Origin: Candidatus Altiarchaeota archaeon
GTDB lineage: Archaea; Altiarchaeota; Altiarchaeia; IMC4; SCGC-AAA252-I15
Direction: 5' to 3'
NCBI GenBank assembly: GCA_043800705.1
Contig: JAZDMS010000010.1
Location: 64,001-128,000 of the forward strand
Length of the DNA: 64,000 bases
Positions 3,417-62,836 of the stretch are shown here, one piece after another. How positions within the stretch are numbered: position 1 is the first letter of the stretch; each line of letters starts with the position of its first letter. The notes under the pieces were generated by a model, which was given only the letters and a program-made list of their open reading frames with translations, was not told the origin of the DNA and ran no database searches. Both the position numbers and the translations under genes were made by a program.

Positions 3417-4136
3417 CTACTGGACGACGATCCCGCCGGCGGAGAAATCCATTGTGTGATTGCCTGCGTTTATCCTAGTCTGGCGCATCTTCTCCACAAG
3501 GGCGCTCCTTATCACGTCGTTGCCGACGTTCACCTTGTTGAAATAGATCAGCCCATCGCAGACGAACTCGCTGACCTCGTCCCTCCCCCCATCGGGCCCC
3601 ATCTGCTCGGAGATGAGAAGAGTCGTGACACCCAGGGACTTGATCTTCGACAGGATGTGGTACACGGTCTGCCGCCTCAGCTGGTATGCGTCCAAGGGGA
3701 CCTTGGAATGCAGGTCCATCGACAGCTCCACGAGCCTCGTCTGCTCGGTGTCCTCGAGGATGTTAGTGTAGACCGACAGGACTGAGAGGCTGTCGATGAC
3801 CAGGCGCCTCGCCTTCTTCGCCGCCACCTCATCCCTCAGATACCCCATGAAGCTCTGGATGTCCTTGTGCTTGATGGACAGAAGCGAAAACAGCTTCTCG
3901 TTGCGGATGTCGCTCCACCCGAACTGCTCCGCCTGCTTGATGATGTCCTCCCGAAACTGCTCGAAACTGACGTAGATGCCAGGCTCGCCATTCTTCACAC
4001 CCTCATGGATGAACTGCAGCCCCAAGATGGTTTTGCCAGTGCCCGGCAGGCCCGAAACCAAAACATTGAATCCGACCGGTATGCCGCCCTCAATAAGATC
4101 GTCCAAACCCCCAACACCGGTGGAAACACGCTCCAT
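3417..4136 (-). CDS. KaiC/RAD55-like single-domain ATPase
   Basis: RVSTGVGGLDDLIEGG, GLPGTGKT, RLVIDS, VEKMR. Confidence 0.9.
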   Translation of the reverse strand: MERVSTGVGGLDDLIEGGIPVGFNVLVSGLPGTGKTILGLQFIHEGVKNGEPGIYVSFEQFREDIIKQAEQFGWSDIRNEKLFSLLSIKHKDIQSFMGYLRDEVAAKKARRLVIDSLSVLSVYTNILEDTEQTRLVELSMDLHSKVPLDAYQLRRQTVYHILSKIKSLGVTTLLISEQMGPDGGRDEVSEFVCDGLIYFNKVNVGNDVIRSALVEKMRQTRINAGNHTMDFSAGGIVVQ

Positions 4137-5439: not shown

Positions 5440-6441
5440 ATGTCCTTCCTGAAACTCCTCGCAAGGGTGCTGCCGCAGGGCATGCGGGAAAAATACTCCA
5501 AAATGGTCGGGTATTCGACGCTGAAAACCAACCCCGACACGTTCATAGGATTCGCCATAACCGCCGGAATCGTCGCGGGATTCCTCCTGACCATCGCCAC
5601 AAACGGGCTAAAACCCCCATGGCCCCTCTCCATGCCCCTCGTCATGTTCACCGTCTCATTTACGGCCATGCAGCTTCTCATCTACATCTGGCTCACCCTC
5701 AACGTCAGCGCGAAAGGGCGCCAGGTCGAGACCGCCCTCCCCGACGCGCTGCAGCTCATGTCCTCAAACATACGCGCAGGCCTCACCACCGACAAGGCCC
5801 TCCTCATGTCCGCCCGCCCGGAATTCGGCGCATTGGAGGAGGAGATCAGGCGCGTGGGCAAGGAGACGATGGCGGGCAGAAACCTCACAGACGCCCTCTC
5901 CAGAATGACGCTGCACATAAAATCCACGGACCTGTCACGCACAGTAGAGCTCATAACCAACAGCATAAAATCCGGCGGCCAGCTCGCGGACCTGCTCGAC
6001 CAGACAGCGGACGACCTCAGGGACCAGCAGATCATCCAAAAGGAGATAAGCGCGAGCGTCCTCATGTATGTCCTGTTCATATTCATAGCCATAGCCATCG
6101 GAGCCCCCATGCTCTTCGCCATGTCCTCATTCCTCGTCGACCTACTGGCCAGGAACATGGCGATGATCTCCAGAGAAATGCCGAAAAACTTCGACGGCGC
6201 AGCCAAGATGCCGATAAAGATGACCGGCCTCAGCATCAGCACCGAATTCATAAAACAATACGCAGTAATATCCATCTCAATCTCCTGCATTATGGGCGCC
6301 ATGATCATGGGCCTCATACTCAAAGGCGAAGAAAAAGAAGGATTCAAATACGTCATCATAATGCTCCCCCTCGCCCTGATAATCTTCTTCGCCGCATCAT
6401 GGGGCCTCGAAATGACCATAGGCGGAATGATGCCGCGCTGA
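5440..6441 (+). CDS. Type II secretion system F family (TadC-like) platform protein
   Basis: LPDALQLMSSNIRAG..EFGAL..SGGQLADLL. Confidence 0.9.
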   Translation: MSFLKLLARVLPQGMREKYSKMVGYSTLKTNPDTFIGFAITAGIVAGFLLTIATNGLKPPWPLSMPLVMFTVSFTAMQLLIYIWLTLNVSAKGRQVETALPDALQLMSSNIRAGLTTDKALLMSARPEFGALEEEIRRVGKETMAGRNLTDALSRMTLHIKSTDLSRTVELITNSIKSGGQLADLLDQTADDLRDQQIIQKEISASVLMYVLFIFIAIAIGAPMLFAMSSFLVDLLARNMAMISREMPKNFDGAAKMPIKMTGLSISTEFIKQYAVISISISCIMGAMIMGLILKGEEKEGFKYVIIMLPLALIIFFAASWGLEMTIGGMMPR

Positions 6442-6527
6442 CGCGCAGAGGGCTACCCCCTCATTTTTTTGGATTGTAGGCCCCCCTTTTTTTAGCGAGT
6501 TTCGTCGTAAGGCAGCTCCAACCTTTC

Positions 6528-6648
6528 GGATAACATTGGGATTAAGCGAAGTCTGCGGAAGGACTGTCTATTCCTGACGTTTGCGCAGATTTGGGGCGCA
6601 GAGCACCCGACAAGGGTCCGAATGCGCCCGCTTAATCCCGCGTTATCC
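6528..6648 (-). repeat. attC-like integron recombination site 1
   Basis: Minus strand GGATAAC-5nt-ATTAAGCG...CGCTTAAT-6nt-GTTATCC; 121 bp, downstream of a cassette ORF. Confidence 0.8.
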
Positions 6649-6697
6649 GACCGAGCCCGACAAGGGCGAGGCTTGAGTTTTCGAACTGCCCCTATAC

Positions 6698-7075
6698 TTA
6701 GATAGTTATCTTTTTTTCGATTTTAATATTTTCTCCAGCGTGAGTCTTGATGATGGTATTGAATTCATCTAAATCTTTTGTTATAAGATTTGTCCGCATA
6801 TATGCAACTTGACTGCTTTCTCTTGTTAACTTCAAATCATATGGTCTCATTCCCCCATTAGATAAAAAGACACTACGAAGGATTTCTATTTTATCAAAAT
6901 CTTTCCACGCATAGAATTTATCTGGTTTGATACAATGAATTCCAGTAGAATAAACTTTAAAATATGGTTCAAACGGTTCAAAAATAAAGTTTGTTTGTAA
7001 TAACACTCTAAGTATGTTGTGCTTCTTAGGTTTATCTTCATAGACTAAACTGCCACGTTCTTTTACATCTATCAT
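6698..7075 (-). CDS. Gene cassette 1, hypothetical protein
   Basis: 125 aa AT-rich ORF between attC sites. Confidence 0.7.
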   Translation of the reverse strand: MIDVKERGSLVYEDKPKKHNILRVLLQTNFIFEPFEPYFKVYSTGIHCIKPDKFYAWKDFDKIEILRSVFLSNGGMRPYDLKLTRESSQVAYMRTNLITKDLDEFNTIIKTHAGENIKIEKKITI

Positions 7076-7125
7076 GTAGGTTATTGCAATTTCATTAAAA
7101 AGAGTTGTCTGGCAGCTCGAAAATT

Positions 7126-8335
7126 GATACTATGTAGGGTTCTTGCCTTTTGCCGTGTAATGCGGCTAAAGGAGGAGTATTAAGGAGTATTATGGAGAAC
7201 CCTACGGTTTATCTTGGATGTGATGCGCATAAAAAAGAGTGCGTTTTCTGCGGTTTGAATGAGGAAGGCAACCGTGTTTGGGAGGGTAAAACGCCCACAT
7301 GTTTGGCGGGATTCGAGTTTGTCAAAGGCAAACTCGAAGGCTATATTGTCAAAGTCGTGGTTGAGGCGGGAGGTTTCGTGTGGAAGATTACGGACTTATT
7401 CTCGGAGGTCGGTTTCCAGGTGTACGTGTGCAACCCCTCAAAGAATCCCCAGATCGGTTTGAGCAGGAAGAAAACCGATAAAGAAGATGCATTTAAGTTA
7501 GCTGATCTGCTTCGGGCGGGGTATTTGAAATGCATCTATATCCCCACGAAAGAGCAGAGGGAGTTGCGGTCTGTAAGCAGGGACAGGCATAGTCTTGGTC
7601 GATTGCGGGGTAGGCTGTTGACTCAGGCACGCACTGCATCGTATGAGCATCAGATAGAACGTCGCAAAAGGATCATTGAATGCGTAGATGATGAAATCAA
7701 GAGTCTGAAAAAAGAAATAACAGCGAATGCCGGGAAAAATCCGAGCATTCGGCTTTTAGACTCAACTCCTGGAATAGCGGAGTACGGGGCTAACCTAATC
7801 GTTGGGGAAATATGCACTATAGACCGGTTCCCCACCTGCAAACAGTACATCGCCTACTGTGGGCTGGTGCCGTCGGTACGTCAGTCGGGGAATACCTTGC
7901 ATCTGGGTGCGATAAGGAAGGATTCCAATCACCGGTTGAAGTGGGTGTATACCCAGTCTGCTTGGATAGCGGTAAGGTGGAATCAGGAACTCAGAAGATT
8001 ATACGATCGGAAAGCTCGGGAGAGGGGGAAGAAGAAGGCGATTATTGTTGTGGCGAAGAAACTCGCCACAAGGAACTATTGGATGCTCAAAGAAAACAAA
8101 ACATACCAGGAACTGGTAGCCGCTTTTATCCGAATAGGCTAATCAAGCCTTACAGATTGTTTGCGGATCAGATCCCTGGACGGATCAGTACAGTAGGCTA
8201 ACCAAGCCTGAATGGTTGAATGTCGGAAGACGACTCACAAAGTACTGACCACGAAAAAAGAAACAAGTAAAATTCTGGAAGGTCTTATTATAGCGGCAGC
8301 CCTATACACATACCAGGCAAGAACCCACATGGTTT
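7126..8335 (+). mobile_element. IS110/IS1111-type insertion sequence A
   Basis: Subterminal IRs ATGTAGGGTTCTTGCCT (7132-7148) and AGGCAAGAACCCACAT (8315-8330); TT at both junctions; non-coding region downstream of the transposase. Confidence 0.8.
7150..8142 (+). CDS. IS110-family DEDD transposase/recombinase (likely start ATG 7192)
   Basis: GCDAHK, VVEA, KTDKEDA, PGI, YCGLVPSVRQSG. Confidence 0.95.
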   Translation: MPCNAAKGGVLRSIMENPTVYLGCDAHKKECVFCGLNEEGNRVWEGKTPTCLAGFEFVKGKLEGYIVKVVVEAGGFVWKITDLFSEVGFQVYVCNPSKNPQIGLSRKKTDKEDAFKLADLLRAGYLKCIYIPTKEQRELRSVSRDRHSLGRLRGRLLTQARTASYEHQIERRKRIIECVDDEIKSLKKEITANAGKNPSIRLLDSTPGIAEYGANLIVGEICTIDRFPTCKQYIAYCGLVPSVRQSGNTLHLGAIRKDSNHRLKWVYTQSAWIAVRWNQELRRLYDRKARERGKKKAIIVVAKKLATRNYWMLKENKTYQELVAAFIRIG

Positions 8336-8336
8336 C

Positions 8337-8454
8337 GGATAACATGGCAGGTAACCGAAGTTCGCCGAAGAAACGTCGCCAGACTGACAATTGGGCGAAT
8401 TTGGGGAACCACGGACCCGCAGGCAGAGAATTCCCGCTTAGCCGTACGTTATAC
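8337..8454 (-). repeat. attC-like site 2
   Basis: Plus strand GGATAAC...CGCTTAGCCGTACGTTATAC, same branched architecture as site 1. Confidence 0.75.
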
Positions 8455-8517
8455 GAGGCGAACCGCAGTGAGCCCGAGCCCCTGAAAGGGGCGAGCGTGC
8501 CTGCCAAGTTTTTTTTG

Positions 8518-8988
8518 TTATTGTTTTAGTTTGATATACCCTTCAATTAGTCTTAGGACTTTTACTTCTCCTTCCCTGTTTAGTGGTTTTTGGACGTATT
8601 CATTTGCGCCAATTCTAGGTCTCTCTTCATCTGACGGTAGTCTACCTGACAACATTATTACTACCTGGTCACCGTTGGATGTTTTCTTTATATCTGGAAT
8701 AACAGTATCCCCAGACATTCCTGGCATTTCTCTATCACACACTACAACATCATACTTCTTTGGGGAGTACTTTTCAAGACCATCCATACCGTTAGCGGCT
8801 AAATCAACATCCCAACCTTGTCGCACCATAATCATTTGGAGTCGATCACGCAATATCTCATCATCATCTATTAAAAGAATCTTTGGTTTACTCACTCTGG
8901 CACTTAAATGTGGTTGGAGTTGACGCACCTCTCCTAAGCTTATCTTATCTGCTAAAGGATTTCTGGTTGAAATATGCTGCGTGACCAT
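8518..8988 (-). CDS. Gene cassette 2, stand-alone response-regulator receiver protein
   Basis: ILLIDDDE, VVCDREMPGMSG, LSG, YVQKP. Confidence 0.9.
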   Translation of the reverse strand: MVTQHISTRNPLADKISLGEVRQLQPHLSARVSKPKILLIDDDEILRDRLQMIMVRQGWDVDLAANGMDGLEKYSPKKYDVVVCDREMPGMSGDTVIPDIKKTSNGDQVVIMLSGRLPSDEERPRIGANEYVQKPLNREGEVKVLRLIEGYIKLKQ

Positions 8989-9214
8989 GTTATTAGATAT
9001 AATAATGAAAACTATTTAACTTGGCAGGCATGTCGTATAACATCGCGGGTAAGCGAAGTTCCCGCGATGGACTGCCTCTGACCCACTTTTGGCGGGAATT
9101 TGGGGCGCCGCGTACCCGGCAAGGGATCACGAACGCCCGCTTAGCCGCATTCCTTAGAACTTTTTCTTTTGGCTGTGTGTTTACATTTTATTAGTCCTCT
9201 ATCTTATTAATCTT

Positions 9215-9364
9215 TTGAGGGCATGGGGCTGTTCCACAATCGTTCCTCGGCGCTCACTGGGCGCAATTTGGTAAGTGGTAAACGGAGCCCCCAATCACGT
9301 TACAGAAGCTTCAGCCTCGGGTGAGGTTGGCTTAGCGGCTAAACGGGGGTGCCCGTGCCCTCAA
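9215..9364 (-). ncRNA. Predicted bridge RNA/seekRNA of IS B
   Basis: Closing stem TTGAGGGCAYGGG; two internal loops carrying matches to the attC target and to the IS circle junction. Confidence 0.75.
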
Positions 9365-9386
9365 CTGAAGTAAAGAACTTAATCTT

Positions 9387-10376
9387 TTATGCCACCTCCC
9401 TGTATGGTTCCTGGTTGGTGAGCATGTGCCAGATGATGGTCGCCATTTTCCGGGCGGTGCTTCTTCTGGCGGTTTGCATGCCTTTTCTTTTTTGGATTTT
9501 GTAGTAGTGTTTCATGAATCTTGTGTCGATTGTTGCAGCTTTCCCGGAGGATTCGTAGAGTATCCATTTGAGCCATTTGTTGACTGCGTGTTTTTCTACG
9601 GTGTGTTCTTTGCTGCCGGATTGGTAGATTCCGGGGCATAGTCCGCAGTAGCTGATGAGGTGTTGGGGTGTTTTGAATCGTTTTATGTCTCCGATTTCCG
9701 CCAGGATGAACAGGGCTGAGTATTCAGCTACTCCGGGCAGGCTCATCAGCAAACTTGTTTGATGGTTGCTGCGGCTTATTTTTTCTATCCGGTTTTTGGC
9801 TTCTTGTTCTTCGGCGTGTACGGTGTCGTAGACGTTCAGGAGGTTGGTGGTGTTCTGGTCCTGGTTTTGTTTTTTGAAGGCTGTTAGCATCTTTTTTGTC
9901 CAGAGGTTTTTGGGGCAGGTTTGACCTTCCCGAATGAGATTCGTCTTTATTTTGGTTTTTACCTGTGTTTGTATCCTGGTTATGCTGCTTTTGTGTCTGC
10001 ATAGGTCTCGTAGTTTCTGTGTTTCTTCGCCGGGTATGTAGACTTCGGGCAGGTAGTTGGTTCGCAGCAGGTCTGCGAGTATTTTGGCGTCGCCCCAGTC
10101 TGTTTTTTTGTTTGCGGCAAGTTGGTGTGTTTTTAGGGGATTAGCTAGTTTGACTGTGTATCCGAGTGTTGTTAGGTTTCTGTATGCTGGTCGCCACATT
10201 CCGCAGGCTTCTACGGCTACTGTCAGATGGGTGTTAGGTATCCCTGTCACGAACCGTTCAACAGCGTCTTTTCTGGCGGGGAATTCATTCTCCCGAACGA
10301 CTTTTCCCCTGGCATCCATGATGCACCCGGTGTACTTTTCCTTGTGTATGTCCAACCCGCAAAACAACTGATCCAT
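9387..10376 (-). CDS. IS110-family DEDD transposase/recombinase
   Basis: GLDIHK, AVEA, KTDWGDA, LPGV, YCGLCPGIYQSG; SD GGAGGTGA ahead of ATG 10376. Confidence 0.95.
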   Translation of the reverse strand: MDQLFCGLDIHKEKYTGCIMDARGKVVRENEFPARKDAVERFVTGIPNTHLTVAVEACGMWRPAYRNLTTLGYTVKLANPLKTHQLAANKKTDWGDAKILADLLRTNYLPEVYIPGEETQKLRDLCRHKSSITRIQTQVKTKIKTNLIREGQTCPKNLWTKKMLTAFKKQNQDQNTTNLLNVYDTVHAEEQEAKNRIEKISRSNHQTSLLMSLPGVAEYSALFILAEIGDIKRFKTPQHLISYCGLCPGIYQSGSKEHTVEKHAVNKWLKWILYESSGKAATIDTRFMKHYYKIQKRKGMQTARRSTARKMATIIWHMLTNQEPYREVA

Positions 10377-10506
10377 ATTTTTCACCTCCCCGGGGCTTAT
10401 AGACGGTAATAAGCCCCATAATAAACTATTTGCCTAAAGAAAAAGTTCTACTACCATCACGTTATGCGCCCCTGGGCGACAAGCCCAGGGTTCGAAGCCC
10501 AAAATA

Positions 10507-11121
10507 TTATTCTGTAAAAGAATGATTCAAGATATAGTCAGCTGGCAATACTTTCGACTCATCTTCATTATACCAGAAGCACTGTTTTTGTTTGCTATAG
10601 AAAGAGCTATTCATGTTGCAGCATATATTACAGCAAACATAGGAGTGATCAGGGATTTTAGTGACATAAAACTTTTTGAAGGTGTCATATCCGTCTTTTT
10701 CAAATTCACCAAAGAAACCCGTTACGTTAAACGGTTTAGCTCCGAAATACACTAATTTGCTGGTTTCCCTAGTCAGGCAGTTATCTGTTTTCATGTCCCA
10801 GAGGATGACGTCGTTATCCGCAAATGTGCAACTTTTGAATTTCGACTTTCTTGCTACTGCTGTTATATTCTCAATTCCAGCAGAAATTGTTTCAGTCCTA
10901 TTCGATATCCTTATAGGATACTCTTCAGAGGGTTCACAATTGAAGATATACCATCCATGGTAGTCGATAACTTTAGGGATCAAAGATAAATTCACTTGAA
11001 TAGTACTTGTAGAAATTGAGGATAATCTATGTGTCGTTGAAGTAATTCCTTGATTTGTGTCCGAACCAATACACCCACAAAAGAGTAATACCAGGGTTAA
11101 TGAAGGCAATATTTGATTCAC
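10507..11121 (-). CDS. Gene cassette 3, Cys-containing predicted lipoprotein
   Basis: LVLLFCGCIG lipobox-like N terminus, Ser/Thr linker, AT-rich. Confidence 0.7.
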   Translation of the reverse strand: MNQILPSLTLVLLFCGCIGSDTNQGITSTTHRLSSISTSTIQVNLSLIPKVIDYHGWYIFNCEPSEEYPIRISNRTETISAGIENITAVARKSKFKSCTFADNDVILWDMKTDNCLTRETSKLVYFGAKPFNVTGFFGEFEKDGYDTFKKFYVTKIPDHSYVCCNICCNMNSSFYSKQKQCFWYNEDESKVLPADYILNHSFTE

Positions 11122-11203
11122 ATTTATCTATACATCCTCTAGCAATAAAATCGTTTGGGTCGTTTGGGCTTCGAAAGTCAGTTCGCCGCAGCGAGCCGAT
11201 TGC

Positions 11204-11326
11204 GCATAACATTGGGGCTAAACGAAGTCCGCCGAGGAAACGCCGCCAGAGTGACTTTTGGGCGGATTTGGGCAACCACGTACCCCGACAAGGGGCAGAG
11301 AATTGCCGTTTAGCCCTGCGTTATCC
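11204..11326 (-). repeat. attC-like site 4
   Basis: Plus strand GCATAAC-ATTGGG-GCTAAACG...CGTTTAGC-CCTGC-GTTATCC; 123 bp. Confidence 0.8.
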
Positions 11327-11401
11327 GACCGAGCCCGGCAAGGGCGAGGCAAGCCCCTCCAAAAGGAGGGGCGTAGAGTCGCGGAGGGGCAATAGTTCTT
11401 A

Positions 11402-12289
11402 TTATTCCCTTAGCCGTAATCTTTTTTGATTTGTCTCGATTAATCTCAATCTTCTTTTTATTCGAGTCTGAGGTATTTGATTTCTTAGGAATATCATACC
11501 CTCATCAGTCAGTCTCCCAGCTTCTCTCTCACTAGGTTCTTGTAGATATCCCCGTCGTAAATATTCCTCTTCTGTCTCAATAATTTCTTTTTTAGTTTTT
11601 AGGGGTGGTTTTTGGACTGATAATACTATCACTCCATCAATACCGTATCCATCCATAAAATCAATGAGAGCAAGCTCATACGTACTATATAAACGTAATC
11701 CCCGAAAGGTCGATGCTGTATCTGTTAATGACTCCATATAAGGATTTTCTCTCCATCTTTGACAAAAGTAATTTTTACTTAATTTAAATAATCTCCAATA
11801 ATCTTTAATTCTTTTTTCATCTCTATCCAAAATTCTACTTTTTAGATGTTCATTTATAACAACACTATAATAGATCGGACTGATTACGGCAAGGGCAGAA
11901 TGAATTAATTCGTGTTCTAAGCTGTTTGTTTCATGTACTAGCTTTTCTGGCCCTTTGGAGTAAGGATAATCCGCCACACTGATAAGGTTATGGGTGAGAG
12001 AATAGCGTCCACCAACACTTTTCTTGTGTTTTATTGAAATCTGTAATGGTAATAACTCTTCAATAGGCACTTCCCAGATTTGTGATATTCGTTGAAATAA
12101 ACTTCTAACTATTGGAGTCATGTTTTCCAATCTAAACTTTCCACCCTCCTCCGGAACAATCAATAAACCATATGTCCTATCAGTCAATGAACGAGTATCA
12201 TACCCTTCCCAAATCTTTGGAAAAGAATCATTAAATCTTTGGTGAAATTCTTCAACCCGTTGGTCCTTATTTTTTTTCTTAATGTGCAT
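11402..12289 (-). CDS. Gene cassette 4, hypothetical protein with HExxH zinc-metallopeptidase motif
   Basis: SLEHELIHSA plus downstream E (YMESLT); ATG near 12289 chosen because the longer ORF crosses the recombination site. Confidence 0.6.
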   Translation of the reverse strand: MHIKKKNKDQRVEEFHQRFNDSFPKIWEGYDTRSLTDRTYGLLIVPEEGGKFRLENMTPIVRSLFQRISQIWEVPIEELLPLQISIKHKKSVGGRYSLTHNLISVADYPYSKGPEKLVHETNSLEHELIHSALAVISPIYYSVVINEHLKSRILDRDEKRIKDYWRLFKLSKNYFCQRWRENPYMESLTDTASTFRGLRLYSTYELALIDFMDGYGIDGVIVLSVQKPPLKTKKEIIETEEEYLRRGYLQEPSEREAGRLTDEGMIFLRNQIPQTRIKRRLRLIETNQKRLRLRE

Positions 12290-12342
12290 ACACACCAATA
12301 AGATATCTGAACAATGACTATATATTGCCCCTCCGTGATTTC

Positions 12343-12410
12343 GGATAACACCGATTACCCGCAATTGTTGCGGGTAATCGCTCTTTTGGGCTGGTTACCC
12401 GCAGTTATGG
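12343..12410 (-). other. Array-proximal recombination site (candidate attI or atypical attC)
   Basis: Core GTTATCC on minus strand, perfect 13-bp hairpin 12352-12380, direct repeat TTACCCGCA at 12355 and 12395. Confidence 0.5.
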
Positions 12411-12494
12411 GCATTATTTTTCCGATGCTCTGTGGGCCGTGGTTTTGGTCTTTATCGTTGGGGTTTTATATTCGCCGGCCGCCTTTTTCTTTGT

Positions 12495-12677
12495 ATGGAA
12501 TGCAGGAGGGCCTTGAATTTGAAGGCCTGCAATTGCACGTATCCGTGTGAGCGGAGGGGTTTGTGTTGCGAGTGCGTGGCATATCATCGGAAGCGGAATG
12601 AGCTGCCGGCCTGCTATTTTGATAAAGATGCTGAGAAGTCGTATGATCGGAGCATTGAGCGATTTATGCAAGGCTAA
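12495..12677 (+). CDS. Small Cys-rich protein (DUF6485-like)
   Basis: [20 protein letters not shown]...LPACYF. Confidence 0.75.
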
Positions 12678-12710
12678 GGCCGAAAATTGAGGACTAAAGA
12701 TGTAATCGGG

Positions 12711-13367
12711 TCAGTCTTCGTCTGTGCAGCAGCATTTTCTGCTGTGTTCGCTGCAGGGGCCTTTGGTGAGCGGCATCTGTATGTCTGGGGAGGTGCAGTT
12801 GTAGTTGGTGCAGTAGAATATGCCGTATCCTTCGTCGTCGCAGGCAAAGTCGCATTCGTTCAGGTATTTGGTTATGCAGCGGCCGTATTCGCACCTTTCA
12901 TAGATGTCGCAGGCTAATACGGCTGTGTTCTTCGGCTTGCCGAGGCAGTAGCTGTCCGGGTGGCCGCGGTTCACGCACGTATACGTCGTCGAGTAGTTCC
13001 ATATCGTGTTCCCCTTGCATTTGAGTTCCGATACGACTAATCCGCCGCAGTCCGCTTCGGAATTGCAGCGTTTGCCTTTGAGGGTCGTGGTCGTAGTGGA
13101 TGACGTGGTCTCTGATGACGATGTAGTGGTCGTGGATTCTGTCGATGTCGTCGTCGAGGTGGTAGTGGTGGACGACGTGGTGGTCGTGATGGTGGATGAT
13201 GTGGTCGTGGTCGTCGACGAAGTCGGCAGGACAATGTACCATACGCTGTTGAGGACGGCTTCGGCTGAATTCACGAATAGGGCCGAGGGGATTAAAAGCA
13301 GCAGAACGAGCATTATGCCCATTATTGCGACGAGGGCCGTCATGACGGCCTCTTCCTTGGCGACCAT
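12711..13367 (-). CDS. Membrane-anchored Thr-rich, Cys-rich surface protein
   Basis: N-terminal TM, poly-Thr/Ser linker, many Cys. Confidence 0.75.
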   Translation of the reverse strand: MVAKEEAVMTALVAIMGIMLVLLLLIPSALFVNSAEAVLNSVWYIVLPTSSTTTTTSSTITTTTSSTTTTSTTTSTESTTTTSSSETTSSTTTTTLKGKRCNSEADCGGLVVSELKCKGNTIWNYSTTYTCVNRGHPDSYCLGKPKNTAVLACDIYERCEYGRCITKYLNECDFACDDEGYGIFYCTNYNCTSPDIQMPLTKGPCSEHSRKCCCTDED

Positions 13368-38087: not shown

Positions 38088-38411
38088 CGGGTTCTTGCGG
38101 TGATTCTTCTCCTGCCGCAACTGGCGGCCGCGACGACGATGTCGGACATCATCTGCAGCATCATGGGCCCCATCTTTACGACCCTCTTCGCCGCCGGGGG
38201 GACGCTCGTCGTCATAATGTTCATCTACGGAGGGATAAAATACGTCTACGCCTCCGACGACCCCGGCGGCAGGAAGGAGGCGAAGAACATCTGCATCCAC
38301 ACACTTGTCGCGGGGATACTGATGGTCGTCGCCGTCTCTGCAGTCCGCCTGCTTGGCGCCACCTTCATAACCTACATCTGCCCAAGCATCAGGGCCAGCA
38401 CCGGACTATGA
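38088..38411 (+). CDS. VirB2/TrbC-like pilin paralog 1
   Basis: Signal, TM-YGGIKYVYASDDPGGRK-TM. Confidence 0.75.
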   Translation, partial: RVLAVILLLPQLAAATTMSDIICSIMGPIFTTLFAAGGTLVVIMFIYGGIKYVYASDDPGGRKEAKNICIHTLVAGILMVVAVSAVRLLGATFITYICPSIRASTGL

Positions 38412-38491
38412 TCTGAATACGGGCCTTCCCCGCACCGTTCACTTTTAACCTCATCCGGTGAATATCATCACATATTCTTCAGAAGTGTTTT

Positions 38492-38875
38492 ATGGAAAAG
38501 TACAATGTTACGGGCGTTTTAAAGGCTTATCGGACTATGCTGACTGTTTTCGTAGTGGCCCAGCTTCTATTCATCATACTGCCCATAAACGCAATGGCGG
38601 GTACCGCAGTCCCGACCGGAACTCTCGCGATGAGGAACACGGTGTGCCGGATCCTCGATGCCATTGAATTCGTGATCACGGCATTGGGCTCAAGCCTAGT
38701 CATCATCATGTTCACCTACGGCGGCCTGAAATACGTGTTCGGAGCCGACGACCCCGGCGCAAGGAAACAGGGAAAGAATACATGTATCCACTCGGTCATC
38801 GGCGGCATAATCATCGTCATCGCGTCCCTGGTCGTGAACATGATCGGCTTCACGGCTGCCATGTCATGTCCCTGA
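38492..38875 (+). CDS. VirB2/TrbC-like pilin paralog 2
   Basis: YGGLKYVFGADDPGARK motif. Confidence 0.75.
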   Translation: MEKYNVTGVLKAYRTMLTVFVVAQLLFIILPINAMAGTAVPTGTLAMRNTVCRILDAIEFVITALGSSLVIIMFTYGGLKYVFGADDPGARKQGKNTCIHSVIGGIIIVIASLVVNMIGFTAAMSCP

Positions 38876-38926
38876 GGAGTCTTTCAGCACCGAAGATGTT
38901 CAATCGCCACGGAGGGGTTAGCGAGG

Positions 38927-39274
38927 ATGTTTAACGCGATTAACCGGATGATGGCCCGAAGAAGGCTGGCTTTTTTAATAGTCCCCCTGTCCCTGCTTCC
39001 CTCGATTGCAGACGCCACGGCGATCACGTTCAAACCCCTCGTCTGCACCCTTCTCCTCGAGGTACGGGCCGCAGTCAGGACGGCGGGAGCGTCGTTGGTC
39101 GTGATAATGTTCATCTACGGCGCCGTCAAATACGCGTTCTCGGCAGACGACCCGGGCGGCAGAAAATCCGGCAAAATGACCTGCATACACGCCCTTATAG
39201 GCGGAATACTCATAGTATTGTTCGAGGTCATCCAAACCCTAGTGTCTTTGACCTGGTGGGGGACGTGCCCATGA
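38927..39274 (+). CDS. VirB2/TrbC-like pilin paralog 3
   Basis: YGAVKYAFSADDPGGRK motif. Confidence 0.75.
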   Translation: MFNAINRMMARRRLAFLIVPLSLLPSIADATAITFKPLVCTLLLEVRAAVRTAGASLVVIMFIYGAVKYAFSADDPGGRKSGKMTCIHALIGGILIVLFEVIQTLVSLTWWGTCP

Positions 39275-39612
39275 ACCTTAAACAACAGGCGAAACGCGCA
39301 TTGGCGGCGATAATGCTCAGCGGTGCAGCGTCCGCCACATTGACGCCGATCCACGCGGTCCCCTGCGCCGTGATCGAGGCCATGTGGGAGGCAGTAAGGT
39401 CGGTTGCGCCGATGATCTTCGCGATAATGTTCCTCTACGGCGCCGCCAGATACGTCTACTCCGCAGATGATCCGGGCGGAAGGAAGCAGGGGAAGAACAT
39501 CATCATACACGCGATCATAGGGGTGCTGATCATGGGCGTCCTCGTCGCGATCGTCTCGATAATGACTAATTTAGGCGACTTTCCCCTCTGTCCAGGGATC
39601 ACCATCACATGA
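39271..39612 (+). CDS. VirB2/TrbC-like pilin paralog 4
   Basis: YGAARYVYSADDPGGRK motif; ATGA overlap. Confidence 0.75.
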   Translation: MNLKQQAKRALAAIMLSGAASATLTPIHAVPCAVIEAMWEAVRSVAPMIFAIMFLYGAARYVYSADDPGGRKQGKNIIIHAIIGVLIMGVLVAIVSIMTNLGDFPLCPGITIT

Positions 39613-39974
39613 AAACAATTCAAGGGAAACTGATGCGGGCTGCCGCGGCAGGAGCCCTAATGCCCTACGCACTTGCGCAGGCGGTCTCGGCGGCCTATCT
39701 GACTGTGATAAACGGCTTCATATGCTCCCTGATAGGGTCATTCCAGATAATGGGGAACTCCATAGCCATCATAATGTTCGTCTACGGGGGCATAAAGTAC
39801 ATCTACACCGCCGACGACCCGGGCGGCAGGAAACAGGCCATGGGGATATGCGTCGCAGCAATAATCGCGATGATAATCATCCAGGCAGCGAGGGGAGTCA
39901 TAGGGGAGATAGGGCAGATCATAATAACAACCGCAGGATTCGCTGCCGGTTCAGTGGCGGATCCGTGTCCATGA
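39609..39974 (+). CDS. VirB2/TrbC-like pilin paralog 5
   Basis: YGGIKYIYTADDPGGRK motif; ATGA overlap. Confidence 0.75.
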   Translation: MKTIQGKLMRAAAAGALMPYALAQAVSAAYLTVINGFICSLIGSFQIMGNSIAIIMFVYGGIKYIYTADDPGGRKQAMGICVAAIIAMIIIQAARGVIGEIGQIIITTAGFAAGSVADPCP

Positions 39975-39978
39975 AAAA

Positions 39979-40311
39979 ATGAAAATGAGAAAAACCTTGT
40001 TGGGGCTGTCGGCGGCGGCGTTTTTTGCACAGTCGGTTTCCGCCACCGCACCCGACGCTGCGACCATAATCAGAAACATCATCTGCACCCTCATACCGGA
40101 GGTCATCAACCTGTCATGGGCGCTGGCGGTCCTGGTCTTCGTATACGGCGGCGCCAAATACGCCCACGCGGCGGACGACCCCGGCGGAAGAAAGCAGGGC
40201 AAGAGCATCGCACTCAATGCCATCATCGGTTTCATAATAATCGCGGCATCCAAGGCAGTGGTTGAGGCAATCGCTTTCGCCGGTGGTACGGGAAACATCT
40301 GCCCGCCTTAG
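39979..40311 (+). CDS. VirB2/TrbC-like pilin paralog 6
   Basis: YGGAKYAHAADDPGGRK motif. Confidence 0.75.
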   Translation: MKMRKTLLGLSAAAFFAQSVSATAPDAATIIRNIICTLIPEVINLSWALAVLVFVYGGAKYAHAADDPGGRKQGKSIALNAIIGFIIIAASKAVVEAIAFAGGTGNICPP

Positions 40312-54720: not shown

Positions 54721-55755
54721 TTAAATATTCACTAGATTAGCATAGTCGTGGTGTATCAACTGGTCAGTCTCTCCTAATGGAAACAGCTTCACGACCGGCT
54801 CGTCGCTGAGGAGGCAGTTCTTCTTGTAGACCTCCATGAGGCTGTCGTGGCTCTTCTTGAAGCTCGAATAGTCGGGGTATACTGATAACATCACCGACTC
54901 CAGGTCCCCGGACACCTTCAGCACATGGGCCGGGTCTTCGAGGACCGAATCCGTATGCTTCAGCCTGTCCTGGATGCCATGGTGCGGGCTTATATGCAGG
55001 TGCGTGAACGCCAACAGCCCGAAACCCAATTTCCCCACATCCGGGATGTTGACAGGCCTCAGAAGCCTCCCGTCCAGGAACTTGTTCCTCAAACCGTTCA
55101 CCGTCTGCCTGCTGACCCCCGCCGCATCCGCCACAACCTCATCCGAGGCCGAAGGATGCCCCACCAAAGCCGCAAAGACCTTCAGCTCCCTGCTGGTCGG
55201 CTTCCACTCATCCCCCTCCCTTGCTTTAGCCTTCTCGGCCGTGTGCTCGAGGCCCAGATGATTCGCCAGAAGAGGCGCATAGTCGAAGAACCTGGGGATG
55301 TTCGTAAGGCTCAGCGGGAAGAAGACATAGTTGTGCCTCTTGTCCGTCAGGTATCCGCTGTCGTGGTGGACCTTATGGTGGGCTCCGATGCTCTCCCTCA
55401 CCTTCGTCAGATTCTCGGCCGCACCGAAGCTCAGATGTTGGCCGCCGCAGCGCACCATATAGAACGCATTAGAGACGCCGTCCCTGACGACCTTCCTGAA
55501 CGCCGCCAGATCATGCGAAGCCGCCCCCCCGAACTCCCCATACAAGGCCGTAAAAAGCTCACAGCCGACGCGGCCGAAATCCGGGACGAGGACGTGGTGT
55601 ACGAGGCCGTTCTTCTCCAGCCGCTGCCTGACGACGGTCACCGTAGTACGCACAACACCCAGCCTATCGGACAACTCGACATCGTTCAAACCCGGCCACC
55701 GAACCAGGCCATACAGGACCTCCCGCTCACGGGAAGTCAAATCCCCCGAACCCAC
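54721..55755 (-). CDS. Tandem Lrp/AsnC-like HTH regulator
   Basis: Two repeats of LT/PT-SRE...HTH...PDxGxxG; start uncertain. Confidence 0.75.
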   Translation of the reverse strand: MGSGDLTSREREVLYGLVRWPGLNDVELSDRLGVVRTTVTVVRQRLEKNGLVHHVLVPDFGRVGCELFTALYGEFGGAASHDLAAFRKVVRDGVSNAFYMVRCGGQHLSFGAAENLTKVRESIGAHHKVHHDSGYLTDKRHNYVFFPLSLTNIPRFFDYAPLLANHLGLEHTAEKAKAREGDEWKPTSRELKVFAALVGHPSASDEVVADAAGVSRQTVNGLRNKFLDGRLLRPVNIPDVGKLGFGLLAFTHLHISPHHGIQDRLKHTDSVLEDPAHVLKVSGDLESVMLSVYPDYSSFKKSHDSLMEVYKKNCLLSDEPVVKLFPLGETDQLIHHDYANLVNI

Positions 55756-55771
55756 AAAGACATAATTACAA
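55685..55771 (+). repeat. 87-bp direct repeat, copy 1
   Basis: Identical to 59972-60058. Confidence 0.92.
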
Positions 55772-55907
55772 ACAGAGATATAAAAAGGGGACAAAAAGAC
55801 AAAAAAGCCGAATAGCGGAAAACCATCCGCTTCTGACAGAGGGAGCCACCGCCCCCGTATGTATTTAAATATGCATTCACTAAATGAATTATTCACTTGG
55901 TGAATGT

Positions 55908-59879: not shown

Positions 59880-60058
59880 GGAGAAATAACGACTTTGCTC
59901 CTCATCAGCCGCTGTCTAACGACAGACACCGTAGTGCCGACAACGCCCGACTGTCAAATAACTCAACATCATTCAAACCCGGCCACCGAACCAGGCCATA
60001 CAGGACCTCCCGCTCACGGGAAGTCAAATCCCCCGAACCCACAAAGACATAATTACAA
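59880..60058 (-). pseudogene. Truncated duplicate of the 5' end of the Lrp-like gene (contains direct repeat copy 2, 59972-60058)
   Basis: 87 bp identity, then degenerate similarity (SVVRQRL versus TVVRQRL). Confidence 0.8.
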
Positions 60059-60091
60059 GCACAGATATAAAAAAGAGACAAAAATACAAAA

Positions 60092-60792: not shown

Positions 60793-61764
60793 CTATTTAT
60801 GTCTGCCGCTAAATTTTTCCTTGAGCTCTTTCCTTGTGTTCCTCAGTATAGTCTCCCCTTTTTTTGACTTCAGATTCGTCCCTAACAGGCATTCCCTTAA
60901 AAAAGTCTCTTTGGCCCGTTTGCCTATGTCTGGCGAATTAATGTATACTCCACCGACTATCTCATCGCTGTTGTCCCGGATATACATGAATACGTCTATC
61001 CCCTGGTGGCCCTCATGACAAACCATCTGTAGACCCGGCTGGGGATTGAGGTAGATTATGTCAAGATTCTTCGATCTCGCAAGGAACATGACATTGTCTA
61101 AGACCATCTCACACTCTTTGTAAGCCCAAACGGGGTCATGGTAACACCTGAGCGCATGGCGGTAGAGGTATTCAACGTCAAGCATAGTTATGTATGTCAC
61201 CTTAAGTTCCTTCTTCACGATACACCTGTCATAAATCGTCCTGAAGGGGCCTCCCCTATCAACGCTCTCTAGAAGCCGGGGGGTATAAAGGATGTTCGCG
61301 AATTTCCCCGCAGCATATACTGCGTTGGACCTTTTGGCGCAGAAACCGATTTTCTCGAAGAATGGCGTATGGTCCAGGTATTCGACAGTGGGTTTGAAGT
61401 AGTTAATCTTGGTCCTATTGAAATAATCCTCAAGGTCTCCTGTAAGCCTGTCAAAATCAGCCATGGTTTTCTTCAACTCCTCCTTCGAAGAGTGTAAAAT
61501 CCCACTTACTCCCTCAAAATCAACAACATAAGCCCCAAATCCGCTCTGCGTGATACAGCCCCCTCTCTTCAAGGATCTAAGGATATTAAACAGGTTCGGT
61601 TTCATTAGATACTTCCCAGTCAACTTCCGATATTCCCCCTGTATGGCCTTAGGGGAGGCCTGTATATTCTCGGATTGTAGGCGGAATATGCACTGCATGA
61701 TGTCGTACTGCTGCGGTGTCAGTCCGAGCCACTCAGGCACCCTAGCATCAAGAGAATCTTCCAT
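60793..61764 (-). CDS. wHTH/coiled-coil (TrmB-like architecture) regulator, paralog A
   Basis: WLGLTPQQYDI..KPNLFNIL..YIRD..IVGGVYINSP. Confidence 0.7.
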   Translation of the reverse strand: MEDSLDARVPEWLGLTPQQYDIMQCIFRLQSENIQASPKAIQGEYRKLTGKYLMKPNLFNILRSLKRGGCITQSGFGAYVVDFEGVSGILHSSKEELKKTMADFDRLTGDLEDYFNRTKINYFKPTVEYLDHTPFFEKIGFCAKRSNAVYAAGKFANILYTPRLLESVDRGGPFRTIYDRCIVKKELKVTYITMLDVEYLYRHALRCYHDPVWAYKECEMVLDNVMFLARSKNLDIIYLNPQPGLQMVCHEGHQGIDVFMYIRDNSDEIVGGVYINSPDIGKRAKETFLRECLLGTNLKSKKGETILRNTRKELKEKFSGRHK

Positions 61765-62710
61765 ATTTCCCCTTCAACTTCATCCTTACATTTCGTATTA
61801 TGTTCTCGCCCTTTTTGGTTTTAAGGTTTATACCGCTTTCACATTCCCTGAGGAACATCTCCTTGGCTCTTTTCCCAACGTCCGGGGAGCCTATGTGTAC
61901 TCCGCCGATGATATCCTCTCTGTTGTCTCTGATGTAAAGAAACACATCTATTGGCTGGATTTTCTCCGGGAGGACAAGATCTAAACCGAAAAGCCTTTCA
62001 GTATATACTATATCCACATTGTCCATTTTCCTAAGTTCGCACAGATTTTCTATCGTCTTCTGGCATTCGAGATATGCTAAACCGGGATTCTTGTATGTTT
62101 GTAAGGCCTGGTGATAGAGGTAATCTATGTCCAAGTTGGTAAGGTATTTGGCTTTTAGTCTTTTCTTGAAACAGCCGTCGTATATGGCTTTAACGTATTC
62201 CGCTCTTCCGATTCCGGCAAGCATTGTCGGGGTATATGAAATTTTTGCGAATTTTCCGACAACATAGTGGACCTTTGCGACCCTGACTAGTTGGGCAAGT
62301 TTATGGTAAAACTGGTCATATTCCAGATATTCGACAACTGGTTTAAACTGACTTACTTTTATCCTCGAAAAATACGCATCCACCTCGTCGACAACCTTCT
62401 CAAATTCAGAAATCTCCCTATATCTCTCCTCTTTTTTCTGCCTTAACGTCTTTTCTACAAAATCAAAATCGACCTCGTAGCATGCATACTCCGTTTGTTT
62501 AATGTGTCCCTTGTTTTTCAGTAATCTAAGAACGTTAAAGAGGTTCGGTTTCATAAGATGCTTCCCCCTAAGTTTTCTATACTCCTCTTGTATCGCCTTG
62601 GGTGCGGCAACTATTCCCCTCTCATGAATCTGATAAACGCATTGTAGAATATCGAATTGCTGGGGTGTAAGCCCTAATCCCTCTGAAACCATCTTTAAAT
62701 CAAATTCCAC
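61748..62710 (-). CDS. TrmB-like regulator, paralog B
   Basis: Aligns end to end with paralog A. Confidence 0.7.
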   Translation of the reverse strand: MEFDLKMVSEGLGLTPQQFDILQCVYQIHERGIVAAPKAIQEEYRKLRGKHLMKPNLFNVLRLLKNKGHIKQTEYACYEVDFDFVEKTLRQKKEERYREISEFEKVVDEVDAYFSRIKVSQFKPVVEYLEYDQFYHKLAQLVRVAKVHYVVGKFAKISYTPTMLAGIGRAEYVKAIYDGCFKKRLKAKYLTNLDIDYLYHQALQTYKNPGLAYLECQKTIENLCELRKMDNVDIVYTERLFGLDLVLPEKIQPIDVFLYIRDNREDIIGGVHIGSPDVGKRAKEMFLRECESGINLKTKKGENIIRNVRMKLKGKYGRFS

Positions 62711-62836
62711 CAGACCACCCTATACAATAGCGGGTAACCTAGATTAAAAAGAAACTGTAACGACTGTAATACTACAGTGTAATACTCTTCATTCAGGACA
62801 TTCGTCTGATTTCTTATGGTTGCCACCGATAATTTT

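Follow-up and report, generated by a model that had tools for sequence, protein, structure and literature searches.

The 64,000-nt stretch of archaeal DNA analyzed here (the window) contains an integron-like cassette array without an integrase (CALIN). Its four attC-like sites are ~130 nt long, its cargo ORFs are AT-rich, and IS110 elements have inserted at two places (Table 1). The consensus fold of the attC-like sites shows R and L boxes and ends in two hairpins, with compensatory changes at 15 of its 42 pairs and no evident extrahelical bases. A second array contig of the same genome, C37, holds three further cassettes, including a reversed toxin-antitoxin cassette with a ParE toxin, and there the same IS110 end as in insertion 2 survives as a remnant at the same attC position. 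Each cassette ORF in the window lies between two complementary sequences, the left and right arms. Arms, spacers and attCs are GC-rich (0.46–0.75) relative to the cargo (0.30–0.40).

Table 1. Features of the cassette array in the window; the + strand corresponds to the bottom strand.
Feature	Position	Strand	Evidence or remark
attC-like site 1	6524..6655	+	covariance-model matches; distal array end, adjoins chromosomal T2SSF/FlaJ-like gene
Spacer 1, GC-rich hairpin module between R'' and left arm	6656..6677	+	sequence; GC 0.68
Cassette 1 left arm	6678..6690	+	12/13 with 7111-7123
Cassette 1 ORF, 125 aa	6698..7075	-	no family match; GC 0.30
Cassette 1 right arm	7111..7123	+	same arm directly abuts R' box in relative locus L144
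IS110-family insertion 1	7124..8332 (ends approximate)	+	exactly between right arm 1 and site 2 R' box
Insertion 1 transposase	7150-8142	+	Pfam DEDD_Tnp_IS110 and Transposase_20
Insertion 1 terminal inverted repeat, 12 nt	7137-7148/8315-8326		
attC-like site 2	8333..8461	+	covariance-model match
Spacer 2 with hairpins	8462..8497	+	fold; GC 0.72
Cassette 2 left arm	8498..8510	+	13/13 with 9018-9030
Cassette 2 ORF, 156 aa, stand-alone response-regulator receiver domain	8518..8988	-	Pfam PF00072, E = 3.9e-18; NCBIfam matches cover receiver domain only
Cassette 2 right arm	9018..9030	+	directly abuts site 3 R' box
attC-like site 3, 5' part	9031..9150	+	covariance-model match; remainder at 10457-10470; split by IS110 insertion 2
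IS110-family insertion 2	9151..10456 (ends approximate)	-	inside site 3, between L'' and R''
Insertion 2 transposase	9387-10385	-	Pfam
Insertion 2 terminal inverted repeat, 19 nt	9155-9173/10432-10450		
Spacer 3 hairpin	10471..10490	+	sequence
Cassette 3 left arm	10491..10503	+	13/13 with 11163-11175
Cassette 3 ORF, 204 aa	10507..11121	-	no family match
Cassette 3 right arm	11163..11175	+	followed by 24-nt extra hairpin, then site 4
attC-like site 4	11200..11333	+	covariance-model match
Spacer 4, two hairpins	11334..11378	+	fold
Cassette 4 left arm	11379..11394	+	15/16 with 12323-12338
Cassette 4 ORF, about 296 aa	11402..12289	-	no family match; likely start ATG 12289, not TTG 12364 of the ORF list
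Cassette 4 right arm	12323..12338	+	
Terminal R' box, then non-attC sequence with three TTACCCGCA-like motif copies	12339..12420	+	candidate attI-like array end; no recombinase gene beside it
Inverted repeat, 18 nt, within terminal R' box region	12347-12364/12368-12385		

The four arm pairs had been reported in an initial annotation, and re-checking recovered the same coordinates and the same counts of complementary positions. The stop-side arm lies 3–7 nt past the stop codon, as had been described, while the start-side arm lies 29–41 nt upstream of the likely start rather than 35–40 nt. When the right flank was dinucleotide-shuffled (60 times for each cassette), the duplex z-scores of cassettes 1–4 were -3.4, -6.6, -4.6 and -7.0, and 0/60 shuffles reached the observed energy in each, so the repeats of the window exceed chance. 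All seven cassettes of this genome carry such a private inverted repeat, those on C37 being 15/15, 12/13 and 12/12 (read from the sequence; two of the three were scored). An ungapped score of at least 13 was reached by 5/30 true pairs and 0/870 partner swaps between cassettes; for scores of 10 or more the figures were 16/30 and 1.4%.

For comparison we assembled 64 cassettes from 34 loci (15 genomes, one further MAG and three metagenome contigs), with 4032 swapped partners as the null. The mean duplex energy was -14.2 kcal/mol for a cassette's own flanks versus -9.0 kcal/mol for swapped flanks (Mann-Whitney p = 3e-18, a value that, like the other p-values here, overstates the case because related genomes are non-independent samples). 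This bears out the earlier statement that the sequences differ between cassettes with the pairing kept: own flanks pair far better than swapped ones. The own-flank duplex lay beyond the 5%, 1% and 0.1% tails of the swaps in 36/64, 23/64 and 13/64 cassettes, and dinucleotide shuffling gave a median z of -2.6, with z at or below -3 in 29/64. The remaining 28/64 have no helix beyond the 5% swap tail; the helix is therefore not obligatory, or it decays. Complementarity between the two flanks of one and the same site was at the null level, both in arrays (-9.2, n=89) and at solo sites (-10.2, n=21). The complementarity is thus specific across the cassette and not around one site. Cassette-private complementary ends are real, widespread in this lineage and outside the standard cassette model.

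Where the arms lie is set by the attC and not by the ORF. The right arm is at most 1 nt from the next site, abutting its R' box, in 29/36 cassettes, and the left arm starts a median of 33.5 nt past the site, after a purine run that belongs to a conserved purine-rich hairpin spacer downstream of R''. Arms are equally frequent for the two ORF directions (11/19 vs 23/42, Fisher p = 1), with the ParE-toxin cassette of C37 among the reversed ones, and they are also present in ORF-less cassettes of 111 and 120 nt. The arm helices are mostly perfect. Across 109 spacer zones the motifs CCGA, GAGG and AGAGT are strongly oriented, and CGNAG occurs 145 times on one strand versus 13 for its complement.

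The position of the crossover can be read from junctions between related loci. L145 and L170 have a 1.2-kb upstream cassette in common, and their sequences part immediately past TAAC. One downstream element is joined, from AAC onward, to three different cassettes upstream, and in the L171/L172 orthologues the divergence begins after TAA(C). These junctions put the crossover in the left R box of the window + strand, at AA^C, in agreement with the bottom-strand cleavage point given in the available text of PMC5027507; the + strand is therefore the bottom strand. Across a cassette, the private bases of the R boxes, left(i+1) against right(i), paired at 4.48/7 positions (n=46); the figure was 3.16/7 inside a single site (n=102) and 2.89/7 for random pairing. 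They obey the same own-cassette rule as the arms.

Compensatory double changes could be read from the arm sequences: two pairs between cassette 2 and L148:1555, and two each between cassette 4 and L108:4238 and between cassette 4 and L145:1285. Cassette 3 and L148:2683 have their arms in common, R boxes that differ at three compensated pairs, and unrelated ORFs; in the relative G011, arms almost identical to those of cassette 3 surround an ORF unrelated to its own. Eight cassette pairs have similar arms (Hamming distance of at most 3 of 12). Homologous ORFs were found in 0/8, and one pair has opposite ORF directions. In the two cassette pairs with homologous ORFs the arms differ at 7–8 of 12. 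The arms are uncoupled from the cargo. It had been suggested that they may record gene capture; taken to mean that the arms arrived with the gene, that idea finds no support, given similar arms around unrelated ORFs and homologous ORFs with different arms. Between L171 and L172, the stretch from R'' through the spacer to the left arm has few differences over about 70 nt (about 94% identity, counted manually from the alignment), and in the same alignment the body scores 64–92 and the attC core 62 per 100 columns. The arms of one of these two copies have decayed to 11/15 without compensation.

We circularized the cassettes in silico at the crossover and folded the bottom strand with DNA parameters, and also folded the array and junction contexts. 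In the minimum-energy structure of the circle, 13/13 arm pairs of cassette 2 and 16/16 of cassette 4 form, with pair probabilities of 0.98 and 0.94. The arm helix is part of the minimum-energy fold in the array, junction and whole-circle contexts (pair probability 0.94–0.98, from thermodynamic folds of 0.7–1.2 kb of ssDNA that disregard kinetics and binding proteins); for cassette 2 the values are 0.975 in the array and 0.976 in the circle. It persists in 10/10 trials with the interior shuffled. The initial annotation had proposed a stem closing a roughly 200-nt extended attC in the circular cassette. The closing helix does appear in the predicted fold, but what it closes is a multi-branch junction of ~200 nt, holding the attC and one or two conserved spacer hairpins on the R'' side, and not a simple longer hairpin. 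The initial annotation had also suggested that the stem may assist excision. In the minimum-energy fold of the array, however, R'' of site i pairs with R' of site i+1, so that both are drawn out of their own hairpins, which could hinder recombination in the array instead of promoting it. The bottom strand comes out slightly ahead (26 cassettes against 10; Wilcoxon p = 0.014), with G-T pairs at 28/796 vs 17/759, but the top strand folds almost equally well (pair probability 0.97 and 0.81), making the strand preference weak.

The reading we favor, with a probability of roughly 0.55, is that the arms extend the classical own-cassette R-box pairing outward, privately for each cassette, and would close a multi-way junction of ssDNA once the cassette is excised. 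Along the + strand, a cassette runs from the attC core through R'', the conserved purine-rich spacer with one or two hairpins, the left arm, the ORF and the right arm to the private part of the next R' box, as far as AA^C. In the classical rule a cassette's first bases complete its own attC, and the arms would continue that complementarity outward. In the excised single-stranded cassette, or with the ORF looped out, three elements may form together: the private R'/R'' pairing, the spacer hairpins and an arm helix of 10–17 bp. Together they would hold the attC closed within a multi-way junction of about 200 nt. If the helix forms in vivo, the junction would presumably keep the attC of a free cassette folded and competent for insertion, resisting melting or strand-binding proteins, may offer the recombinase a larger structured substrate, and would thereby raise recombination.

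Arms and spacer might instead be a footprint without present function, a cargo-independent chassis left by the process that builds cassettes, for example by inserting cargo into the loop of an existing palindromic module, or by flanking it with two copies of one module. The complementarity would then last only through a cassette's youth, or while integrase shuffling moves both arms together. We consider this rather doubtful, even though the uncoupling of arms from cargo, the armed ORF-less cassettes, the GC difference between arms, spacers and attCs and the cargo, the uncompensated decay in one orthologue pair and the cassettes without a clear helix are all in its favor. Several compensatory double changes, the better conservation of the R''-spacer-arm stretch than of the ORF, and the strict anchoring to the attC argue against it. 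So do the 21 solo sites, whose complementarity averages at the null level, with two outliers among them: they are not flanked by matching arms, and the sites are therefore not simple inverted-repeat-ended modules. Footprint and function are not mutually exclusive.

It is less probable still that the helix acts in the array and not in the free circle, with the ORF looped out on a single-stranded bottom strand. The predicted array fold contains the arm helix and the R''(i)/R'(i+1) pairing, and the available text of Loot et al. reports that excision frequency drops with cassette length for weakly folding sites on the lagging-strand template. Such a helix could bring the flanking attCs within about 50 nt and favor excision of exactly that cassette, or it could tie up R''(i) and R'(i+1) and thereby block excision from the array. 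These two versions predict opposite effects, a helix across 0.5–1 kb could form only with the entire cassette single-stranded at one time, and local attC hairpins would form first.

A stem between the 5' and 3' ends of the cassette mRNA, serving stability, processing or circularization, is very improbable. The arms of the window do bracket the ORF closely, and archaeal rRNA/tRNA processing stems are likewise long-range inverted repeats around a functional unit. Against this, the array arms are as frequent on reversed ORFs, are tied to a DNA recombination site and not to start and stop codons, flank ORF-less cassettes and lack a bulge-helix-bulge, and Rfam returned no family match at 6000-13000. 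A promoter would also have to fit the AT-rich 29–41 nt between right arm and start, which would put the right arm outside the cassette's own transcript. We give even less credence to the arms being terminal inverted repeats of small non-autonomous transposons that brought the ORFs into the array. Each unit is indeed an ORF between inverted repeats of 10–17 bp, and the arms form loose families (e.g. TTGCGGGG.. and TTTTCGAG..), but they vary between cassettes far beyond what one transposase recognizes, they hold fixed positions with respect to the attC, neighbor breakpoints fall at the R-box AAC and not at arm ends, and no target-site duplications were noticed. Chance or base composition, for which only the short length of each repeat speaks, is refuted by the repeats in all seven cassettes of the genome and by the shuffle and swap controls.

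In many respects the arrays of this genome resemble classical integrons: structured R/L-box sites (59-base elements) between short ORFs, a reversed toxin-antitoxin cassette among the cargo, IS110-family elements inserted at sites, and bases past the crossover that pair with the R'' of their own cassette and not with that of the neighbor. The crossover in AAC of the bottom-strand R' box is likewise that of the classical attC in the available text of PMC5027507. The private pairing of the classical attC is 4 nt, whereas the archaeal array has a longer R-box part and a separate 10–17 bp helix, with a conserved 20–45 nt hairpin spacer on the R'' side between R box and outer helix. The archaeal sites also differ in having no evident extrahelical bases and no IntI over the family cut-off. 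To our knowledge, mobile-integron cassettes leave almost no room between ORF and attC. Long chromosomal attCs of the VCR type resemble the archaeal sites in length (~100–135 nt) and in an interior three-way junction. VCR-type sites branch inside the L box; in the predicted folds, the archaeal sites branch additionally outside the R box, where they are closed by cassette-specific sequence.

A canonical integron integrase (IntI) over the family cut-off was not found in this genome or in five relatives. A distinct clade of Xer-like recombinases adjoins arrays in relatives and has a ~60-aa N-terminal extension that is missing from Xer-like paralogues. This extension is a likeness to lambda-like tyrosine recombinases, whose arm-type sites are, like CGNAG in the spacers, short repeated motifs beside the core on one side; that the spacer motifs may be arm-type-like recombinase sites is a lead only. 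The CALINs described by Ghaly et al. 2022 (PMC9668308) are likewise attC arrays in archaeal MAGs, mostly without an integrase; the paper reports 6 IntIs for 539 attCs in 75 MAGs, with attCs alike within a genome and within an order. Its main text mentions no inverted repeat, hairpin or stem, consistent with the initial annotation having placed the arms outside the known attC description. To the picture given in that main text, the present array adds the arms, the spacer module and the association with a non-IntI recombinase. Near the end of the array that carries the terminal R' box lie ORFs for DUF6485, RDD and a deaminase.

The island at 6.5–12.4 kb of the window has a GC content of 0.41–0.48, against 0.55–0.62 around it, and is laid out as an integron array, with tandem short ORFs between imperfect palindromic sites whose R'/R'' (..AAC / GTT..) and L'/L'' boxes are paired. 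In the fold of each attC-like site, an R box (..ATAAC/GTTAT..) is separated by a short spacer that stays unpaired from an L box of 10 bp, beyond which the terminal structure forms two hairpins. The consensus fold comprises 42 pairs, 15 of which show compensatory changes. Extrahelical bases near L'', of the kind that would mark the bottom strand, are not evident in the RNAalifold consensus, in which the central spacer is asymmetric, 3 versus 2 nt; a scan of window 6000–13000 against Rfam by E-value gave no match. The island has an AT-poor frame with AT-rich filling, the sites having a GC content of 0.54–0.58 and the spacers 0.68–0.75. The cassette ORFs, at 0.30–0.40 in a genome of 0.55, lie among GC-rich sites, spacers and arms; the cargo has a foreign look, the frame a native one. 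Adjoining the array are genes for T2SSE, a KaiC-like ATPase, two T2SSF proteins and DUF2226, an archaeal-type pilus/archaellum set. This gene set and a thermosome-like C-terminus, recognised by eye, are grounds for calling the genome archaeal. The genome, of 2.0 Mb and 87.6% complete, contains another small array on contig C37, where three cassettes, including a reversed ParE-toxin pair, are accompanied by two complete sites and a partial one.

Coordinates of the array, of its insertions and of the related elements discussed in the text
Feature	Location	Remarks
Four attC-like repeats	window, starts 6524, 8333, 9031, 11200	~130 nt each
Four cassette ORFs	window 6698–12289, minus strand	125 aa; 156 aa, stand-alone response-regulator receiver; 204 aa; ~296 aa
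IS110 insertion 1	window 7124–8332	exactly between right arm and R' box
IS110 insertion 2	window 9151–10456	between L'' and R''
Remnant of the IS end of insertion 2	C37 ~3790–3740	same attC position
Array end, candidate attI-like site	window 12339–12420	R' box, then three TTACCCGCA-like repeats, two making an 18-nt hairpin
ORF-less cassette, 111 nt	L143 2962–3072	arms 10/10
ORF-less cassette, 120 nt	L148 (reverse complement) 3462–3787; L145 (reverse complement) 4660 onward; L167 8821 onward	private R box TTTCTTG/CAAGAAA
Solo site	L178 (reverse complement) 1341–1489	palindromic outlier
Solo site	L161 4124–4240	palindromic outlier
Recombinase clade, reference gene	G051:C2:699–1757 (L196)	clade in genomes G051, G021, G036, G039, G046, G053, G055

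Alternative cassette neighbours in related contigs, the sole and indirect sign of recombination at these sites, place the crossover in the AAC of the R' box. Two loci, L145 and L170, have an identical 1.2-kb cassette and diverge right after ..GCCTAAC. In L145, L148 and L167, three different upstream cassettes join one downstream element from AAC on, and this element ends at ..CAAGAA(A/T)C, beyond which the sequences diverge. L171 and L172 have orthologous cassettes whose identity is lost past TTGCGTATAA(C). The breakpoints thus fall at or after TAAC, and AA^C is where PMC5027507 has the R' box of the bottom strand cleaved. Breakpoints at AA^C imply that the window + strand is the bottom strand, that the ORFs are classically oriented and that both arms come from one cassette. 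The opposite assignment, with the window + strand as top strand, was hinted at by L145 versus L152 and overturned by the three-way alignment. Of the seven bases immediately 5' to AAC, 4.48 are paired with those following GTT in the previous site (n=46), compared with 3.16 of 7 within their own site (n=102) and 2.89 of 7 at random. The own-cassette R-box rule of classical integrons, by which bases past the crossover complete the attC of the cassette they belong to, applies here, and the arms extend that rule outward. Taking the arms themselves as the true R box, with a crossover at AGAG^TT, was rejected because the private bases of R' go with the upstream cassette.

The initial annotation had assigned each of the four window cassettes an inverted repeat of its own. 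Re-reading the window sequence reproduced all four exactly, in coordinates and in complementarity, and they exceed shuffled flanks, with z-scores of −3.4 to −7.0 and 0 of 60 shuffles as good. The three C37 cassettes also have their own repeats, of 15/15, 12/13 and 12/12 (read from the sequence; two of the three were scored). When flanks were swapped among 30 cassettes, a score of at least 10 was reached by 16 of 30 true pairs and 1.4% of 870 swaps, and a score of at least 13 by 5 of 30 true pairs and none of the 870 swaps. Further sites were collected with covariance models, of which the first (R1) matched in 15 of 101 related genomes and was too narrow, so that a broader model built from 52 hits (R2) was used afterwards. 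R2 sites occur in 36 of 61 genomes of the class, the same 61 genomes making up the phylum set, and a family-level model search returned nothing further beyond the known matches. One genome from a different phylum (G065) also has sites, as do MAGs bearing the names Aenigmatarchaeota and Woesearchaeota in their titles. Of the 105 stretches picked up by a 16-base degenerate attC motif, nearly all were single chance matches and only L006 and L007 fit the attC profile; no array was present in the eight bacterial loci examined from among them. A 21-base motif run against metagenomes yielded 12 loci, contributing just a few more cassettes.

The resulting set of 64 non-redundant inter-site bodies (90–3600 nt, from 34 loci, with duplicates and N-containing bodies left out) confirms that the repeats generalise beyond the window. 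The own-flank duplex energy averages −14.2 kcal/mol over the 64 cassettes, compared with −9.0 for 4032 swapped pairs, and 36, 23 and 13 of the 64 pass the 5%, 1% and 0.1% tails of the swaps, respectively, a significance that the related genomes in the sample overstate. The other 28 of 64 show no special own-flank pairing. Flanks of one single site are at the null level (−9.2, n=89; solo sites −10.2, n=21), so the complementarity is specifically across the cassette. An attC module with matching ends was accordingly rejected for solo sites, with two exceptions, the palindromic outliers L178 and L161, whose flanks pair mutually at −29.5 and −20.1 kcal/mol. Upstream of the L178 site there is also a complement of the spacer, so that a single long symmetric hairpin results.

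The right arm abuts the next R' box, ending at most 1 nt from the site in 29 of 36 arm-positive cassettes. The site and the start of the left arm are a median of 33.5 nt apart (IQR 24.5–41), with a purine run (..RAG) directly in front of the arm, whose first bases are TT, TC or TG in 29 of 36. From the site to the left arm runs a conserved CCGA-hairpin-GAGG-(hairpin)-AGAGT module, and its motifs are strongly oriented: over 109 spacer zones, the counts in the two orientations were 39 versus 1 for AGAGT, 145 versus 13 for CGNAG and 22 versus 1 for GCGNAGC. DNA mini-hairpins of the GCGNAGC type are unusually stable. The initial annotation had positioned the arms by the stop and start codons of the ORF. 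This holds within the window but is incidental, as arms are equally frequent for either ORF direction (11/19 vs. 23/42, p = 1) and are also borne by ORF-less cassettes of 111 and 120 nt, the latter conserved in L148, L145 and L167 behind three different upstream cassettes.

Cassettes 2 and 4 (698 and 1139 nt) were circularised at the crossover and their bottom strands folded with DNA parameters. As the initial annotation had expected of a circular single-stranded cassette, the arms pair in the minimum-energy folds, at 13/13 and 16/16 positions with pair probabilities of 0.98 and 0.94, the private R' bases plus AA pair with R'', and the arm helix is kept in 10 of 10 shuffles of the interior. 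Folding the junction only gives the arm helix, the attC stem and 1–2 spacer hairpins. The proposal that the stem closes an extended attC is thus supported by the folds in a refined form, in which a cassette-private helix is predicted to do so. The helix is also predicted in the linear array, with pair probabilities of 0.975 and 0.94 (0.97 and 0.81 on the top strand). There it draws R'' of site i and R' of site i+1 off their own hairpins, so that within the array it could juxtapose the flanking sites or disable them. The balance between the strands leans slightly to the bottom one, whose helix is the more stable in 26 cassettes versus 10 (p = 0.014).

That bottom-strand edge speaks for selection on the arms, as do pair-preserving double changes between similar arms of different genomes, two each between cassette 2 and L148:1555 (locus:position), cassette 4 and L108:4238, and cassette 4 and L145:1285. 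Cassette 3 and L148:2683 add to this, having arms in common and three compensated R-box pairs. So does the conservation of the stretch from R'' through the spacer to the left arm, ~94% identical (counted) between L171 and L172, where the body has 64–92 and the attC core 62 identities per 100 columns. Against selection speak the arms of one L171/L172 copy, which decayed to 11/15 uncompensated, the 28 of 64 cassettes without a clear helix, the arms of L108:4238 and L143, which differ by two disrupting changes in addition to two compensated ones, and the relatedness of the genomes, through which the tests overstate significance. The arms do not follow the cargo: none of the eight cassette pairs with similar arms have homologous ORFs, and in both pairs with homologous ORFs the arms are dissimilar. 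In L139 and L148, which have an ORF in common at 72.5% nucleotide identity, the homology ends inside the arms, and the arms differ. This uncoupling argues against the arms having arrived with the gene and fits arms and spacer as a frame reusable across cargo.

Two IS110-family insertions lie in the window array, both with ORFs that combine PF01548 (DEDD N-domain) and PF02371 (Transposase_20 C-domain). The remnant of the second one's end at the same attC position on C37 suggests that these elements target the attC-like sites site-specifically, like the IS1111-attC group.

The integron integrase model (IntI, TIGR02249, 265-bit cut-off) had no match in this genome or in five relatives (6 genomes), and the array is therefore filed as CALIN (an array without integrase) or integron-like rather than as a complete integron, which would have IntI beside attI. 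In this it is like the CALIN-type arrays described for archaea by Ghaly et al., 2022 (PMC9668308), who count 6 IntIs versus 539 attCs across 75 MAGs. No recombinase gene was found near the array end proposed as an attI-like candidate. A clade of tyrosine recombinases of 340–373 aa, at least 60% identical to the reference gene in G051, occurs in seven genomes, all seven of which also carry sites of this attC-like family. Its members have Phage_integrase and SAM_4 domains and an N-terminal extension of ~60 aa, with ~20 residues at the 61 positions (169–229) of the IntI model, and are thus without the IntI-specific insertion. An attC-like site lies ~1.5–5 kb from the clade gene in five of nine loci, the other four being short contigs, contig ends or loci with no site within the 12 kb examined. 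By reading, all five linked loci have the gene at the array's R'-terminal end, oriented toward the array. Relative to this clade, the window's own genome has only a 47%-identical Xer-like gene, and the end of the window array that corresponds to the gene's side is the one with the attI-like candidate.

The standard model of attC (57–141 nt; R and L boxes with a spacer between them, then a variable terminal structure) confines the entire functional fold to the interval from R' to R''. The conserved spacer hairpins and the cassette-private helix lie beyond the R box and so outside that model, as the initial annotation had held for the stem. Among known features, classical integrons come closest to this arrangement with their own-cassette R-box complementarity. 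A MITE or TIR transposon would have copies with the same terminal repeats and target-site duplications; here the arms differ between cassettes, as the swap control shows, and the breakpoints are at the R box rather than at the arm ends. A bulge-helix-bulge RNA processing stem has two 3-nt bulges on opposite strands with a 4-bp helix between them, whereas the arm helices are mostly uninterrupted and occur regardless of ORF direction. In the main-text passages searched we found neither cassette-private repeats outside the R box nor the outer helix, the conserved spacer module, cargo separability or the association with a non-IntI recombinase.

One reading would unite these features, although we consider it improbable, at roughly 15%. 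The attC core, spacer and arm helix would form a cargo-independent single-stranded DNA chassis, a multi-way junction. It would be read by an Xer-related tyrosine recombinase with an N-terminal extension, not a canonical IntI, encoded at the same array end in relatives, with the CGNAG repeats of the spacer as putative arm-type binding sites. The slot between the arms would take in or swap genes. If this chassis reading is true, these archaeal arrays bear visible marks of cassette formation, a process that PMC5371416 describes as largely unknown. The lineage is a natural system in which cassette ends pair over 10–17 bp outside attC, frame and cargo can be separated, and conservation within the cassette is highest in the R''-spacer-arm stretch, not in the gene. 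To our knowledge, what holds attC hairpins folded is an open question. In practice, the arms can serve to delimit archaeal cassettes and to spot orphan ones, and the array-linked clade is a candidate non-IntI recombinase. Should the frame prove necessary, attC as currently defined, along with the tools that rely on this definition, would have to gain an outer layer in these lineages.

Elsewhere in the window, six copies of a 128-nt direct repeat (38205–40250), spaced 320–491 nt apart and 62–73% identical, are probably a repeated domain within a coding region. Toward its end there are a 146-nt repeat pair (55659–55804 / 59946–60091, 91% identity) and a 92-nt pair (61568–62608, 75% identity), and GC falls to 0.34–0.40 over 62000–64000; together these may mark another foreign island.
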